From positions 32,001 through 96,000 of the forward strand of contig CBDDDG010000001.1 in the NCBI GenBank assembly GCA_965226555.1: a stretch of DNA of 64,000 nucleotides, given 5' to 3'. Below the pieces are notes generated by a model, which saw only the letters and a program-made list of their open reading frames with translations, made no database searches and had not been told where the DNA came from. Below, one piece after another: positions 25,373 through 44,609 of this stretch (its first letter is position 1; the number at the start of each line of letters is the position of its first letter). This DNA is from Salinispira sp. Its GTDB lineage: Bacteria > Spirochaetota > Spirochaetia > DSM-27196 > Salinispiraceae. The position numbers and the translations under genes were made by a program.

Positions 25373-26825
25373 GAGACCATTGCATAATCCATGGTTTTAT
25401 TGATGTAGGGAAGGATGATAAAAAATTTGAGATAAAGTGATGGGATGATGCGGGAAAAACGGGGTGATAACACCATCTGAGTGCCTGCAAAGGATCGCAT
25501 TTCGCTCATTTTCGACCGTTTCTCCGCTGGTTTTCGTCTTTCGGGCGTCTGTTGCCGGTCGGCTTCTGCCGTTTGTCCCGAATGCGGTCGCTAAGCCGCC
25601 CATTTTCCCTGTTTCTGCAATTCCAAAATCTTCGGTACCCGTTTCAAATTATACGCAATAGCAGACAACAGATGTTGCGTATGCGCTTTTGCTATCCCGA
25701 CATAGCGGGTTCTCCCCCCGCCAAACCATTGGTGCATTCCTCCGAATGTGCGTTCTATTTTGTACCGTCCGCGCTGTATCTCTTTGTTCCTCAGTTTCTG
25801 CTCCGCGGTCAATTGCTTCTTCTTCTCACCCTTCTTCGCTCTGGCTACCTTCCACATAATGCCGTCTTTCAGCTTTCTCTTCTTCAGCGCCGCTCGGTTC
25901 TTCGTGCTTGTATATCCTTTGTCCGCCTGCACTTCTACGTTCTCATCCAATTGCCCCTTATCGAGTAGCGTTTCAAACACCGTACTGTCATGGACATTCG
26001 CCGGGGTGGTCTCGACCGCTACCATAAGCCCATTGTCATCGGCAAGACAATGCTTCTTCGCTCCAAAATGAAATTCCCCATTCTTTTTCGTCCACCTCAT
26101 ATCGGTATCTACTCTGTCCGCAAACTTCTCCGGTTCCCGCTCTAAGGATTTATTATCCGATTGAGCGCATTCATCACTGTCTGTGCGATCAACGATCCCG
26201 CGGGGTTTTCTCGGACTTCTGGTAATGCTCGCATCAACTTTAACCGCTTTCTTAATCATAATCCCCCGCGTTTCAAGCTGTCGGTTTATTTCATTAAGCA
26301 GTCGGTCAAAGATTCCCGCTTTCGTCATGGCTGTGCGAAAACGGCTGAGAACACTGTGATCCGGCACATCATCTTCCACAATAAGACCGCAGAAATTCGA
26401 TGCTCCCATGCTGTCATTCACCATATCTTCCACACCATAATCGCTGAGATCATTCCACATTCCCAATAGAAGCATTTTGAACAGCAGCAGGCCAGGGTAG
26501 GCAGCCCTGCCGACCGCGCTGCTTCCTCGGGTATCGTGTTCTGTAATAATTTCCTCAATGGGCTTCCAGTCGATAATCTGGTCAATTTTCCGATAGAAGG
26601 TGTTTTTCCGTGTACGTCTTTCCATACTGTCTGCGACAAATGACATAGTGTGCTCCTGAGATTTGATCATGGTAAGGATCATAACATATATATGAGGACT
26701 GATTACAGCCAGAAAGCAAAAAATCGAAAGAAAAATTCAAAAAAGTTCATATGGGATGTTGACACTCTGGATAAATGAACGGTACTATAATATCACCGAT
26801 GAGACTGTTGCCATGCAATGATCTC
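25373..26825 (-). mobile_element. IS5-family element (IS1106/IS1126-like ends)
   Basis: IR GAGACCATTGCA / TGCAATGATCTC; 5-bp target duplication AGTAT. Confidence 0.92.
25591..26646 (-). CDS. IS5 transposase
   Basis: GRAAYP..LSD..PDHSVLSRFR, VDAS, QADKGY, RYKIERTFG. Confidence 0.92.
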   Translation of the reverse strand: MSFVADSMERRTRKNTFYRKIDQIIDWKPIEEIITEHDTRGSSAVGRAAYPGLLLFKMLLLGMWNDLSDYGVEDMVNDSMGASNFCGLIVEDDVPDHSVLSRFRTAMTKAGIFDRLLNEINRQLETRGIMIKKAVKVDASITRSPRKPRGIVDRTDSDECAQSDNKSLEREPEKFADRVDTDMRWTKKNGEFHFGAKKHCLADDNGLMVAVETTPANVHDSTVFETLLDKGQLDENVEVQADKGYTSTKNRAALKKRKLKDGIMWKVARAKKGEKKKQLTAEQKLRNKEIQRGRYKIERTFGGMHQWFGGGRTRYVGIAKAHTQHLLSAIAYNLKRVPKILELQKQGKWAA

Positions 26826-27215: not shown

Positions 27216-27240
27216 GAGACTGTTGCCGGGCAATAATCTC
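27216..27240. mobile_element. 25-bp micro-element made of two abutted IS5-type ends
   Basis: GAGACTGTTGC-CGG-GCAATAATCTC flanked by TAAT/TAAT. Confidence 0.65.
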
Positions 27241-27248
27241 TAATTATA

Positions 27249-28588
27249 GAAACCTTTGCACATCATCGGGAATAATGGTATTTTGAAGAAAATTCACACA
27301 GAGAGCTGGGAATGAGCAATCGGGTTGTATTGTGCGCTGTCCGGCGCTGAAACAGGAGAACGCAATGGGAAATAATTGGAAAGAACATCATGGATCGCTG
27401 ATCAATCAGGGTATTCAGGAAAGTAAAGCGCTGAAACGCTTCGATAGTCTGTATGAACTGATCAATTGGAAGGAAATTGGGGAGATGCTCTGTGCTATCA
27501 ACAACAAATCGATGGGCGCGAAAGGATATCATCCGGTTATGATGTTCAAAGTGCTGTTGCTGCAATCGTGGCAGAATCTCAGCGATGAAGGCATGGAAAA
27601 TGCGCTTGCCTGCGACTTGGCATACAAGCGTTTTGTGGGGCTCAATGTTCTCGATGATACTCCCGATCATTCCACGATATGGCGGTTTCGGGAACAACTG
27701 ACCCGTAAGAATATTCTCAGCGCGCTCTTGGACACGGTGAATGCGCAGTTGGACACGCAGGATTGTGAAGTGCACCGGGGCACAGTCAGCATAATTGATG
27801 CGAGTGTCATACAGGCTTCGCGGCATCGGAAGAAAAAAAATGACGCAGGAGAATCGACACAGGATCCTGAAGCGGCCTACGCGAGTAAGAGGGGAGGCGA
27901 TGGAACGGTACGAACAACCTACGGTTTCAAGATACACGTGACGGTAAATGAGAAGGGACGGGCGAAGAAACTGCTGGTGACTGCGGCCAATATTCATGAC
28001 AGCAAACTATTTGGCGAATTGATTATGGGAAATGAGACGGTGGTGTACGCGGATGCCGCGTACCGGAGTAAAGCGATTGCTGCGATGCTTGAGGAGATGG
28101 GCATAGAGAATCAGATACATGAGCGGGCGTATCGGAACACACCGTTAACCGATGAACAGAAGCAGGCGAATTACGGGCGGTCGCGCGTAAGGAATACGGT
28201 GGAGCGGTTTTTTGGTCTGAGCAAACTCCATTGCGGCGCAAGAAAGGCGCGGTATATGGGAGTTCAGAGGAATCAGAGTCGGTTTATGTGTATGGCGATT
28301 ATGTATAATCTGAAACAGATGATCGGCATGAAACGGCGAATGGGGAACATGGCGCTGGAAAACTCTGCGGTTGCGGCATAACAACAGGATAGCTGTGCCC
28401 TTATGGCGGTACTGCTGCCGGAAATGAGGGAAATACTGAAAAAAGATGAAAAAAAGAACGAATATAGCGCGTATCGCGCCGAAAAAAGACGGAGGATGCT
28501 GAAGAGAATAACGTGAAAAACGATGAATAATTTTTTCTGCGTGGAAAAAAGACTACCGGCAGATATAATGGAGTTATTCAAAGGTTTC
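27249..28588 (+). mobile_element. IS5-family element (second type)
   Basis: IR GAAACCTTTG / CAAAGGTTTC; 5-bp target duplication TTATA. Confidence 0.92.
27365..28381 (+). CDS. IS5 transposase
   Basis: PDHSTIWRFRE, IIDAS, YADAAY, RNTVERFFG; AGGAG RBS. Confidence 0.92.
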   Translation: MGNNWKEHHGSLINQGIQESKALKRFDSLYELINWKEIGEMLCAINNKSMGAKGYHPVMMFKVLLLQSWQNLSDEGMENALACDLAYKRFVGLNVLDDTPDHSTIWRFREQLTRKNILSALLDTVNAQLDTQDCEVHRGTVSIIDASVIQASRHRKKKNDAGESTQDPEAAYASKRGGDGTVRTTYGFKIHVTVNEKGRAKKLLVTAANIHDSKLFGELIMGNETVVYADAAYRSKAIAAMLEEMGIENQIHERAYRNTPLTDEQKQANYGRSRVRNTVERFFGLSKLHCGARKARYMGVQRNQSRFMCMAIMYNLKQMIGMKRRMGNMALENSAVAA

Positions 28589-32009: not shown

Positions 32010-32585
32010 ATGGAAACTCTCAGCATTATTCAGCTCTTGTTCGCATTTGGAGTTTTTACTCTGCTGAACATAGTAATTGCTCTTATTATACGGCCGTCTC
32101 AAAAGCAATTTGATGAAACCCGAGCGGAAAACAGGGAATTCATACAGGAATTCAAAACAGAAACCCGTGAATTCATACAGGAATTCATGAAGCTGTCTCA
32201 AAAGCAATTTGATGATTTCAAAACAGAAACCCGAGAATCCATACAGGAATTTAAAACAGAAACCAAGGAATCCATACGAGAACTCAGGGAAACAATACAG
32301 GAATCTCAAAAGCAGTTTGATGATTTCAAAACAGAAACCCGAGAATCCATACAGGAATCTCTGAAGCTGTCTCAAAAGCAGTTTGATGATTTCAAAACAG
32401 AAACCAAGGAATCCATACAGGAAATAAAAGGGGAAATGCGCGAGCTAAAGGCCGACAACCGAGACATTAAACGTGGTCTGGATCATCTCATGTTTTCATT
32501 AATTGCCCGTACTGACCATGAGCTTCAACTTTCGGGAGAAATTCACCATCCGCTGAAGAAAAAATCAGAAAGAGTATCTGGGTAA
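32010..32585 (+). CDS. Membrane-anchored coiled-coil repeat protein, copy A
   Basis: N-terminal hydrophobic helix followed by 7/11-aa modules; four paralogues. Confidence 0.8.
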   Translation: METLSIIQLLFAFGVFTLLNIVIALIIRPSQKQFDETRAENREFIQEFKTETREFIQEFMKLSQKQFDDFKTETRESIQEFKTETKESIRELRETIQESQKQFDDFKTETRESIQESLKLSQKQFDDFKTETKESIQEIKGEMRELKADNRDIKRGLDHLMFSLIARTDHELQLSGEIHHPLKKKSERVSG

Positions 32586-32721
32586 ATAAAACAGCAAAGA
32601 CAGTAACGGCAGCCTGTCACAGAGGTGAATTCAACGGCGAAAGGCGGCGCAGGTATGGTTGAATTCGCAGTGGCGTCAAAAAGGACTTGAAATTATTCAA
32701 TTATAGTAGGATAGTATAAGC

Positions 32722-33222
32722 ATGGAAACTCTCAGCATCATTCAGCTCTTGTTCGCATTTGGAGTTTTTACTCTGCTGAACATAGTAATTGCTCTTATTA
32801 TACGGCCGTCTCAAAAGCAATTTGATGAAACCCGAGCGGAAAACAGGGAATTCATACAAGAATTTATGAAGCTGTCTCAAAAGCAGTTTGATGAAACCCG
32901 TGCGGAAAACAGGGAATTCATACAGGAATTCAAAACAGAAACCCGAGAATCCATACAGGAATTCAAAACAGAAACCCGAGAATCCATACAGGAATTCAAA
33001 ACAGAAACCCGAGAATCCATACAAGAATTCAAAACAGAAACCAAGGAATCCATACAGGAAATAAAAGGGGAAATGCGCGAGCTAAAGGCCGACAACCGAG
33101 ACATTAAACGTGGTCTGGATCATCTCATGTTTTCATTAATTGCCCGTACTGACCATGAGCTTCAACTTTCGGGAGAAATTCACCATCCGCTGAAGAAAAA
33201 ATCAGAAAGAGTATCTGGGTAA
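32722..33222 (+). CDS. Membrane-anchored coiled-coil repeat protein, copy B
   Basis: Same termini as copy A, different module string. Confidence 0.8.
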   Translation: METLSIIQLLFAFGVFTLLNIVIALIIRPSQKQFDETRAENREFIQEFMKLSQKQFDETRAENREFIQEFKTETRESIQEFKTETRESIQEFKTETRESIQEFKTETKESIQEIKGEMRELKADNRDIKRGLDHLMFSLIARTDHELQLSGEIHHPLKKKSERVSG

Positions 33223-33234
33223 ATAAAACCATAA

Positions 33235-33304
33235 GAAACTTTTGCATTGATAAAGGTTTGCTACTGGAAATTGTGCAAGCACAATTTTCCAATGCAAAAC
33301 TTTC
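33235..33304. repeat. 70-bp palindromic element (extra left end + 54-bp unit)
   Basis: GAAACTTTTGCATTGA-TAAAGGTTTGC..GCAAAACTTTC; repeated at 35372-35441. Confidence 0.85.
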
Positions 33305-33334: not shown

Positions 33335-34586
33335 TGGGATATTAAGGTTTGAACAGACCCCACTTTGACCTATTATGCGATCATTTCTTCCGAGTGCCAA
33401 GCCCTCCATCGCTCAAGCGTCGGCCGTGTGAGCCGTTGCTCCATTATGATCGGCTTGAGCCGGAGAATATCACTATCCACATTGGTATTCCGCTGCCTCA
33501 AAAGATCCAGCGGAGTCCCTTTGCGGTAGGTGTTGAACCGCCGGTAATTGAAATCTATCTGATACTCCTCGGCTTCCTTAAGAAACTCATTGAGCTTTGG
33601 ATTCATCACCTGACTGTAGAACTCATCCTCAATGAGCCGGTGCGAGGACTCGACAGAACTGTTCCATGTGCACTGCCCGGGCGGAATACGCAGATACTCG
33701 ACACCCGCCTGTATGAGCGCCTGCTCAAACCCCGATGTTCGGGTTTTGCTCAGATGTCGAACGGTGAACTCTGCCCCGTTATCGGTCTGAACCGTTATGT
33801 CCTTGGCAAGGTCTCCGTCATGATTCCGCAGGTGCTCCAGCAGGTACTCGGCGAACAAGGTTGTTACCATACTGCTCTTCTCATTGGCGAAGGCGTACCA
33901 CAGAGCCCCTGTCGCCCGATCCCGGGCGGTTATCTGGTACTTCGGAACGTCTAAACACTTCTGAGAAAACCGCATAGCGGGAATGTCCGTCAGATACTTG
34001 ATATCAATCTGAATGCACTCGCCGAACTTCATCCTGTCGGTTACCTCCCGCAAATCTCTCTTGGGTAGCGCCTTCGGCTTCTTTGTTTTCTGCGCCCCTA
34101 TCTGCTTTAGCGTCTTGATAATCGTCGGCAGGCTGTACTTCCCGCCAACTTCCGTCTGCAACTGCTTTTGCACCTGAGTTCCAATGATTTTGTTGTGATT
34201 CCGATTCTTGGTCTGGGCAAGACTCTCGAGATGACACCGGTGCCCGAATTTCATCTTCATCGGATGATTGGTCGTGCCCCGCTTTTTGTCTTCAAGCCCC
34301 TCGCCGGATTCAAAGCGCCGAACCCACCGCCGCACCGTGTTGCGCGACACCTCGAACTCCCGAGCAGCCGCCTTGATCGAATGCTCCTGGGCATACCGAA
34401 CCATCCGCAACCGCCAATCATACATCGAAGCCGCCTGATACTTCCGAGACTTGAGATGATACTGAGAATATGTGATACTACTGTTCACTGTTTCCCTCCT
34501 TTTATGTTTTATACAACCCCCAGTGTATACGAATAACCTTCGTTTTACACTGGGGAGGAGGGGTCTGTCCAAAGGTTTATATCCCA
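33335..34586 (-). mobile_element. IS481-family element, copy 2 (transposase 33373-34488)
   Basis: Near-identical to 6843-8094. The 6-bp duplication CAAAAA is confirmed by the empty sister site at 35461-35480. Confidence 0.95.
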
Positions 34587-34631
34587 CAAAAAGGACTTGA
34601 AATTATTCAATTATAGTATGATAGTATAAGC

Positions 34632-35359
34632 ATGGAAACTCTCAGCATCATTCAGCTCATATTCGCATTTGGAGTTTTTACTCTGCTGAACATAGTAATT
34701 GCTCTTATTATACGGCCGTCTCAAAAGCAATTTGATGAAACTCGAGCGGAAAACAGGGAATCCATACAGGAATTTATGAAGCTGTCTCAAAAGCAGTTTG
34801 ATGAAACCCGAGCGGAAAACAGGGAATCCATACAGGAACTCAGGGAAACAATACAGGAATCTCTGAAACTGTCTCAAAAGCAGTTTGATGATTTCAAAAC
34901 AGAAACCCGAGAATCCATACAGGAATTTAAAACAGAAACCAAGGAATCCATACGAGAACTCAGGGAAACAATACAGGAATCTCAAAAGCAATTTGATGAT
35001 TTCAAAACAGAAACCCGAGAATCCATACAGGAATTTAAAACAGAAACCAAGGAATCCATACAGGAAATAAAAGGGGAAATGCGCGAGCTAAAGGCCGACA
35101 ACCGAGACATTAAACGTGGTCTGGATCATCTCATAGAAACTTTTGCATAGGAAAATTGCGCTTGCGCAATTTCCAGTAGCAAAAGTTTCCAATACGGGTT
35201 CTCTCATTTATATTCTTGATTCTCTCAAGGTATAGAAAGTTTTGCCACAGGCAAAACTTTGTCATGTTTTCATTAATTGCCCGTACTGACCATGAGCTTC
35301 AACTTTCGGGAGAAATTCACCATCCGCTGAAGAAAAAATCAGAAAGAGTATCTGGGTAA
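34632..35359 (+). pseudogene. Repeat protein copy C, truncated at 35150 by a cassette insertion
   Basis: Native 3' end resumes at 35262; native stop at 35357-35359. Confidence 0.8.
35136..35261. mobile_element. Composite mini-element: 54-bp palindrome + 45-bp cargo + 27-bp palindrome
   Basis: Absent from copies A and B; flanked by TCAT(A)/TCAT(G). Confidence 0.85.
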
Positions 35360-35371
35360 ATAAAACCATAA

Positions 35372-35441
35372 GAAACTTTTGCATTGATAAAGGTTTGCTA
35401 CTGGAAATTGTGCAAGCACAATTTTCCAATGCAAAACTTTC
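35372..35441. repeat. 70-bp palindromic element, second copy
   Basis: Matches 33235-33304. Confidence 0.85.
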
Positions 35442-35510
35442 TTATGGTTAAATTCACACTGGCGTCAAAAAGGACTTGAAATTATTCAATTATAGTATGA
35501 TATTATAAAC

Positions 35511-36295
35511 ATGGAAACTCTCAGCATCATTCAGCTCTTGTTCGCATTTGGAGTTTTTACTCTGCTGAACATAGTAATTGCTCTTATTATACGGCCGTCT
35601 CAAAAGCAATTTGATGAAACTCGAGCGGAAAACAGGGAATCCATACAGGAATTTATGAAGCTGTCTCAAAAGCAATTTGATGAAACTCGAGCGGAAAACA
35701 GGGAATCCATACAGGAATTTATGAAGCTGTCTCAAAAGCAGTTTGATGAAACCCGAGCGGAAAACAGGGAATCCATACAGGAATTTAAAACAGAAACCCG
35801 AGAATCCATACGAGAATTCAGGGAAACAATACAGGAATCTCTGAAACTGTCTCAAAAGCAGTTTGATGATTTCAAAACAGAAACCCGAGAATCCATACAA
35901 GAATTCAAAACAGAAACCAGAGAATCCATACAGGAATCTCTGAAGCTGTCTCAAAAGCAGTTTGATGATTTCAAAACAGAAACCAAGGAATCCATACAGG
36001 AAATAAAAGGGGAAATGCGCGAGCTAAAGGCCGACAACCGAGACATTAAACGTGGTCTGGATCATCTCATAGAAACTTTTGCATAGGAAAATTGCGCTTG
36101 CGCAATTTCCAGTAGCAAAAGTTTCCAATACGGGTTCTCTCATTTATATTCTTGATTCTCTCAAGGTATAGAAAGTTTTGCCACAGGCAAAACTTTGTCA
36201 TGTTTTCATTAATTGCCCGTACTGACCATGAGCTTCAACTTTCGGGAGAAATTCACCATCCGCTGAAGAAAAAATCAGAAAGAGTATCTGGGTAA
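35511..36295 (+). pseudogene. Repeat protein copy D, truncated at 36086 by the same insertion
   Basis: Native stop at 36293-36295. Confidence 0.8.
36072..36197. mobile_element. Composite mini-element, duplicate of 35136-35261
   Basis: Same sequence at the same position within the gene. Confidence 0.85.
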
Positions 36296-43559: not shown

Positions 43560-44509
43560 ATGACTTTTGCCCGTTATAGATGTAGGAAGAACATTTATGT
43601 GCTTAAAACGTGCACATGGGATAAAACTCATAAGTTCCTGTTTGGCGATGCGGAATCCATATATCAACTGCTGCAATTTGTCGATGATGACTGGATACGG
43701 TATGTTCGCCCTGAGAACATTACTATTGTGAGCAATGAGTTTATCGCCCGGGAGCTCGGAGGCAAGAAGCTGACGAAGCTCATGCGCAAAATATCGGATA
43801 TTGTTGCGAAAATTTCCTTCCGCACCGGGAAGGAAGAGAAAACCGTCTATATCATTCTGGAACATCAATCGACTGTCGATTATTCCATGAGCAGGCGCCT
43901 ATTCTTTTTGAACATTCTCCAGCATGACACTGGCGAAAAGGTGAAGGAGTCCTTGTTAATTATGAGCGATGTGCTCTATAATACACACATCTCAGGGGTG
44001 AATGTTAACGATTACACTATAATTGATACAAAGTTTTGCTCCTGGAAATTGCGCAAGCGCAATTTTCCAATGCAAAACTTTCTATAAAATAGGAGAATGC
44101 TAAGCACAAAGAAAACATTCCAGATCGGAAACTTTTGCTACTGGAAATTGTGCAAGCACAATTTTCCAATGCAAAAGTTTCTGATATGATCACAAAAGAA
44201 GGGATAGAAATACTGTTCCCGTGGCAACTGACCATTTACAAAGAGGTCAAAGCCCAGGTCAAGCAGGAAGTACAGGAAGAAACGAAGGAAGCGCGGCAGG
44301 AAATGCAGGAAGCGCGGCAGGAAATACAGCGGGAAGCGCGGCAGGAAGGGATTCGAGAAGGTCGCGCGGAGGGGCATATTGAGGAGCGGAGAAAAAATGC
44401 CCGCAGTATGTTTTCCAAAGGATTTTCAGCCCATGACATTCAGGATGTTACCGGGCTGAGCGAGGATGAAATTCGAGCATTTCAGCAAAACGAAAACGGT
44501 AAAGCATAA
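43560..44509 (+). pseudogene. Rpn-family gene interrupted by a composite mini-element
   Basis: SDIVAK..YIILEHQSTVDYSMSRR; EARQEG tail. Removing 158 bp restores the frame (TIIDMITKEG). Confidence 0.85.
44029..44181. mobile_element. Composite mini-element: 54 bp + 45-bp cargo + 54 bp
   Basis: 5-bp duplication TGATA at 44024-44028 and 44182-44186. Confidence 0.88.
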
Positions 44510-44589
44510 AAGTGTAGCCGCGCGGGCGGCGCAACCCGTGCCGATTCGCCATGCCCCGCGGTCAGGTCAGTCTCGGTCACATACAAGTA

Positions 44590-44609
44590 GAAACTTTTGC
44601 AAAAGTTTC
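44590..44609. repeat. Minimal 20-bp perfect palindrome of the mini-element ends
   Basis: TA-GAAACTTTTGCAAAAGTTTC-TA. Confidence 0.7.

Follow-up and report, generated by a model that had tools for sequence, protein, structure and literature searches.

Within the 64,000 nucleotide window analyzed here (Salinispira sp., assembly GCA_965226555.1, contig CBDDDG010000001.1, positions 32,001 to 96,000), a 153 bp insert at 44029-44181, two palindromes around a 45 bp middle, interrupts an Rpn gene (YhgA-like, PF04754; 43560..44509, forward strand), raising the question of whether that middle was captured from elsewhere or belongs to the element that carries it. We consider the insert, with a probability of roughly 0.8, to be one copy of a genome-wide, gene-less family of 'dumbbell' elements that make 5 bp target duplications and have a fixed 45 bp middle in two subfamilies, likely a miniature inverted-repeat element (MITE) moved in trans by a resident IS5-family transposase. 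This reading starts from direct observations of family size, two linker clusters, 5 bp duplications with empty paralogous sites, a C-TANNA-G-like target bias, and ends similar to those of one resident insertion sequence, IS-a.

The insert and its relatives in the window

The layout described by the sequence-only reading was confirmed. Reading along the forward strand, the element consists of a left TGATA copy of the target duplication (44024..44028); unit 1, a 54 bp imperfect palindrome of four 11 bp end motifs with the outer-left end CAAAGTTTTGC (44029..44082); a fixed 45 bp internal segment of linker family A, which has 22 copies within 1 mismatch in the genome (44083..44127); unit 2, a 54 bp palindrome that is a direct repeat of unit 1 and bears the outer-right end, matching the left end of an IS5 element at 11 of 12 positions (44128..44181); and the right TGATA copy (44182..44186). 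The two units are 91% identical and lie 99 bp apart. The insertion is positioned just before the ATG of a C-terminal small ORF in the Rpn gene. Excising the insert in silico does open the Rpn frame, as had been proposed, but the gene is still not intact when compared with its paralogues: about 306 bp are missing internally, as is a 9 bp stretch, just before the insertion point, that contains the Shine-Dalgarno sequence of the internal small-ORF start, so this copy has been altered in other ways besides the insert. A 20 bp perfect palindrome of two end motifs (44590..44609) has no duplication and is likely a remnant.

A second element, on the reverse strand at 35136..35261, joins a 27 bp unit, a 45 bp linker of family B and a 54 bp unit. 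Its 45 bp middle is enclosed, as described, by the same four end variants and matches that of the Rpn insert at 24 of 45 ungapped positions as counted earlier by hand; the element's site is indeed empty in sister genes (32010-32585, 32722-33222 and one on contig C12), against which it represents a net insertion of 126+5 bp with target copies matching at 4 of 5 positions. The copy at 36072..36197 (reverse strand) is identical, having arisen from a tandem gene duplication (300 bp repeat, 99%). A 70 bp linker-less family member at 35372..35441 (reverse strand) has an identical copy at 33235-33304; the flanks of these two are inverted, not direct, repeats of each other. The surrounding region (32010-33222 and 34632-36086) holds four tandem paralogues, each encoding a small protein whose N-terminus is hydrophobic and whose 33 bp coiled-coil repeats vary in number; two of the four are cut short by a dumbbell element, and an IS481-like element (33373-34587) divides the array.

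The 45 bp middle is a repeated part of the element

Scanning the genome for the end motif gave 1482 matches, and 126 of 131 gaps from an inner right end to the next left end measured 43-45 bp. The proposed spacing peak thus exists genome-wide, and examples, of which only two independent ones had been visible in the window, number well over a hundred. A looser pattern recovered 213 inner gaps of 41-48 bp; 103 fall into cluster A and 87 into cluster B (190 of 213), and the remaining 23 either read the same modules in reverse or are single-copy. The genome contains 110 complete two-unit elements and 190 linker copies, in forms spanning 97-225 bp. The elements are short, present in many copies and contain no transposase gene, as expected of MITEs. 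Taking the 25 two-unit elements with perfect 5 bp duplications as the best proxy for recent independent insertions, linker A occupies 24 (13 of them identical) and linker B one. Linker B, too, moves as a component of a unit, with one perfect duplication at C10:427572 and a net gain of 5 bp at three sites with empty paralogues.

The sequence-only reading had seen in the insert a micro-composite that takes up DNA, foreign or from the flanks, in a measured length of 45 bp. The sharp 43-45 bp peak and two dissimilar middles of equal length speak for such capture, as does the start of linker A (which also contains TATAAAAT) with TATAA, a favoured target, so that the first dumbbell may stem, once, from two neighbouring insertions. 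The census nevertheless largely refutes capture, and we regard it as very improbable: the 213 gaps yield only two linker families, likely homologous and held together in the 225 bp forms, and no peak appears among unique gaps between neighbouring elements (6 of 57 at 41-48 bp, compared with 9 at 9-16 bp and 5 at 57-64 bp, all small numbers), which also goes against insertion at a fixed distance beside an existing end. The six unique gaps of 41-45 bp are single-copy. Moreover, a 168/169 bp form with an 87/88 bp linker lies in five different perfect 5 bp duplications, so 45 bp is not a measured length; together with the repetition of the linkers across the census, this indicates that the middle is an inherited part of the element whose length is not enforced. 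What sets the 87 bp variant apart is a 42 bp GC-rich piece, the 14-base start of which occurs 26 more times away from linker A, a point that could be counted in favour of capture. This piece belongs to a GC-rich repeat (51 genome-wide matches to the 14-base seed) found 3' of many Rpn genes; related sequence lies at 44510-44580.

Several comparisons bear on the origin of the two linkers. Their consensus sequences are identical at 23 of 45 positions (P ~0.01 against shuffles or genomic 45-mers starting with TATA), the comparisons as a whole give modest values of 23-26 of 45 and P ~0.004-0.013, each family's profile scores the other above 99.4% of controls, variants of A and B share pieces in both directions, and the 225 bp forms carry A and an inverted B, one on either side of a central palindrome. 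Single linkage did not join A and B even at 60%. We read this, with moderate strength, as suggesting that A and B are probably homologous, diverged arms of an old duplication; descent of the middles from one ancestor is what the sequence-only reading had itself named as evidence for an ordinary MITE family. Linker A, the one searched there, had no match in phage or plasmid collections. Matches of either linker to the interiors of IS-a and of a second IS5-family element, IS-b, were no better than shuffles, and derivation from those interiors was rejected. A promoter scan returned 2 sites (1.0 expected), and an Rfam search two matches, at chance level.

Target duplication and insertion sites

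Of the 139 non-redundant elements whose ends are of the outer type, 48 lie in a perfect 5 bp duplication, whereas 2000 shuffles gave a mean of 1.7 and a maximum of 7; no other duplication length stands out. The other 91 lack a perfect duplication, and 25 of these have one mismatch. Comparison with paralogous sites gave a net gain of 5 bp at six of the eight examined, mostly 5 bp at a seventh (S1), and 4 bp at one. The target is symmetric, roughly C-TANNA-G, with C at -1 in 25 of the 48 duplicated sites and G at +1 in 27; a symmetric target is expected of a dimeric DDE enzyme. Elements terminate in 11 bp imperfect inverted repeats, and the right end is invariant in all 25 elements with perfect duplications.

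The same observations bear on whether these are REPIN-, BIME- or PATE-type elements mobilized by an HUH (Y1) enzyme that leaves the target unduplicated. A palindrome-spacer-palindrome layout, singlets that look like remnants, the strong hairpins predicted for one folded copy (z=-5.3) and the site that adds only 4 bp (C1:133944, a decayed junction with no clean duplication) would all suit such an enzyme. Against it are the genome-wide 5 bp duplication, ends matching those of a DDE insertion sequence, the folding of the two units separately instead of as one hairpin, and the lack of any match to PF01797 (RAYT/Y1) in this genome, which is 93.5% complete, in a search whose controls were positive in 6 of 14. 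We therefore give this explanation very little credence.

Insertion at ribosome-binding sites was also considered: 10 of the 48 lie within 30 bp of one, compared with 2.0 in an AT-matched control, but the preference is unproven; with non-coding controls the figures were 4 of 29 and 2.1 (P=0.16), and orientation was unbiased (5 and 5). At C10:181898-183310 and C14:98462-100086, MITE and IS copies sit in tandem on a single target. More generally, an end already in place often has a further MITE or IS5 copy inserted 5-7 bp away, which reuses the duplicated target and so builds a tandem array, as at C10:562234-562576, C10:427540-427668, C14:98462-100086 and C21:351180-353936.

Resident IS5-family elements

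The genome is rich in insertion sequences, with 35 DDE_Tnp_1 matches. The likely mobilizing element, IS-a, is a 1340 bp IS5-family element at 27249..28588 (forward strand) with a TTATA duplication, whose transposase (27332-28381) scores 228 bits to NF033581 (cut-off 140) and whose ends are GAAACCTTTGC and GAAAC[C/T]TTTGA; the similar ends and 5 bp duplication previously ascribed to it were borne out. Several copies have an open frame, and seven have perfect 5 bp duplications. Of 13 IS-a right ends, 6 agree with that of the dumbbell, GAAACTTTTG, at every one of 10 bases. The dumbbell right end also matches the IS-a left end at 11 of 12 positions, and the dumbbell left end matches IS-a at 8-9 of 11. 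Best plasmid matches to the IS5-family (NF033581) protein include ISAba23-family transposases at 46%; the two ISAba23 records compared differ internally. A homologue from a different genome within the phylum terminates in GAGACCCTTGCA. Such ends presumably also resemble those of IS1106.

Candidate parents other than IS-a fit less well. IS-b (25373..26825, reverse strand; AGTAT duplication, NF033581 above cut-off) has a poorer end match, and dumbbell ends have no counterpart at the termini of four other IS families. The earlier proposal of a non-autonomous, IS5-mobilized element thus stands as to its ends, most like those of IS-a, and its duplication length, but not as to DNA capture. The match in ends makes IS-a the likely mobilizing enzyme; the left end agrees at only 8-9 of 11 positions and IS-b also makes 5 bp duplications, so the enzyme is not pinned down. 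A DDE transposase would pair the outermost 11 bp ends and insert the whole dumbbell with a 5 bp stagger.

Two further kinds of repeat are associated with these elements. The left end of IS-b is itself a 25 bp palindrome, and solo 25 bp GAGA-type palindromes form a separate family of about 20 sites genome-wide (e.g. 27216-27240), placed at many genes between a TATAAT-like box and the ribosome-binding site, with no obvious duplications; they could be a second family of MITE remnants or an operator. Orphan IS-a right ends (70-240 bp) with a TATAAT box occur directly upstream of ribosome-binding sites of genes (C1:329196, C1:218509, C2:84360, C2:107066, C12:84724, C18:18349, C23:24699) and have possibly been retained as outward promoters.

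Shortened forms at the same sites

Paralogous sites preserve several states of the same insertion. Site S1 is empty in 16 copies, has a 6 bp footprint in three, a 25 bp solo palindrome in one, 54/55 bp solos in three, partial forms in five and dumbbells in two; site S2 has 30 copies without an element, nine 54 bp solos, one truncated solo and four dumbbells. The presence of empty sites, 54 and 25 bp solos and 6 bp footprints beside dumbbells implies that the 27 and 54 bp solos are likely remnants of collapse, most simply by deletion between direct repeats after insertion, much as solo LTRs arise. With the two palindromic units doubling as direct repeats, the linker is likely lost by slippage or recombination, which would leave 54, 40, 27 or 25 bp solos or a 6 bp footprint within the same duplication. 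Arms and loops are found in both orientations, and recombination across the inner inverted repeats would likely flip them. Unit-1-type solos are enriched for the TATAA target (3 of 5, compared with 2 of 23; Fisher P=0.027, in a test chosen post hoc on five cases), a target that extends the homology into the linker.

Alternatively, the 27 and 54 bp palindromes may themselves transpose, dumbbells being secondary assemblies. Perfect duplications flank 11 hybrid-end 27 bp solos and 11 solos of 54/55 bp, and at S3 and S4 a 27 bp insert faces cleanly empty paralogues, with no dumbbell present at either site. Perfectly duplicated solos, however, are mainly of the type with hybrid outer-left/outer-right ends that collapse would produce (23 of the 76 hybrid-end solos), and those matching unit 1 or unit 2 as found in dumbbells are rarely duplicated (6 of 97 and 1 of 30, rates lowered by half-decayed dumbbells within the 'solo' classes). 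The same-site series show shortening in place, and pairing of two ends 5 bp apart is sterically doubtful. We consider this alternative unlikely, though less remote than capture or an HUH enzyme, and extend the same doubt to its smallest form, a 27 bp hairpin of two 11 bp ends, 5 bp apart, cut and pasted by an IS5-family DDE transposase.

Copies in Rpn genes

About 128 Rpn (YhgA-like) C-terminal tails were found in the genome, their paralogues belonging to several subfamilies. Gene conversion seems to have shuffled the Rpn haplotypes, and broken copies are numerous. The regions within 1.3 kb of an Rpn tail make up 6% of the genome and hold 50 of the 110 two-unit elements; of the 58 elements that have perfect duplications, however, just 3 lie there. 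Identical decayed junctions recur across different Rpn paralogue haplotypes, which argues for passive copying; element copies in the ~128 paralogues likely multiplied by duplication or gene conversion. The examined paralogues have a clear internal Shine-Dalgarno sequence and ATG before the C-terminal domain, and several elements adjoin this internal start, which, by analogy with the Rpn systems treated in parts of bioRxiv 10.1101/2023.05.02.539157, would make a small antitoxin. Contigs from four sequencing runs all contained the element, with a high summed depth, and those from two runs also contained an Rpn join that has the Shine-Dalgarno sequence but no element and may be an allele or a paralogue.

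Distribution and relation to known mobile repeats

Ribosomal protein S2 of the host is closest, at 73-74%, to that of genomes labelled Salinispira, which makes the host a spirochaete. The dumbbell family had no match in 40 relatives or in 7 genomes of the family, and the linker-A pattern had 0 matches in a collection of genome contigs. A pattern allowing any spacer found 51 metagenome, 10 genome and 0 viral loci, with flanking palindromes absent throughout. Some 40 of those in metagenomes come from a single set of related assemblies and represent an unrelated dispersed repeat with the same two 11-mers 42-44 bp apart and no flanking palindromes. The palindrome pattern with GAGACC-type ends occurred at 5 scattered loci. 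The literature searched, largely outside subscription journals, held no description of the family and nothing on minimal end spacing.

Type II MITEs (QMITE1/2, Chunjie, Correia), as outlined in sections of PMC10969869, are short, non-coding, high-copy elements with target duplications and similarity to insertion sequences at their ends alone; QMITE1 ranges over 39-400 bp, and the size series of such MITEs reaches REP-like remnants. Dumbbells share all of these traits, including a size series, and have only ~11 terminal bases, and nothing internal, in common with IS5-family elements. They differ in that each end is a 25-55 bp palindrome of repeated 11 bp end motifs, the ends are direct repeats, and remnants down to 27 bp remain in intact duplications. 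In the passages available from PMC3116915 and bioRxiv 10.1101/2021.07.10.451892, REPINs and BIMEs are palindrome doublets with a set spacer, the doublet being the likely mobile unit and singlets being read as remnants. Dumbbells resemble REPINs in this layout only: they lack an identifiable RAYT/Y1 gene in the genome and a single long hairpin, have a 5 bp duplication and IS5-like ends, and are confined to a single lineage of those searched. Neisserial NIMEs (dRS3 and RS elements) are portrayed, in the part of PMC3898611 available, as short palindromes flanking few families of 30-160 bp spacers in mosaic arrays. The likeness to dumbbells again lies in layout only, short palindromes around limited spacer families; dRS3 is a phage integration site, whereas the whole dumbbell unit has a transposase-type duplication. 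Spirochaete genomes have already been noted as MITE-rich in portions of PMC11602168. Dumbbells show every MITE feature that could be tested here and are best classed with this known kind of mobile repeat, as an IS5-type MITE family that is specific to its lineage and has palindromic ends.

The striking reading of a DNA-capturing cassette is thereby removed as a candidate. In its place, the natural series of empty, dumbbell, solo and footprint states at the same paralogous sites illustrates a likely route by which palindrome-ended MITEs decay to REP-like palindromes that keep the target duplication. The family also lends itself to testing the minimum length of an IS5 substrate; if the 27 bp hairpin does move, it would be an exceptionally small transposing element, and dumbbells, assembled from such units, would parallel REPINs but be driven by a DDE enzyme. 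In this spirochaete, whose Rpn gene family is greatly expanded, dumbbells have interrupted many of the Rpn copies.
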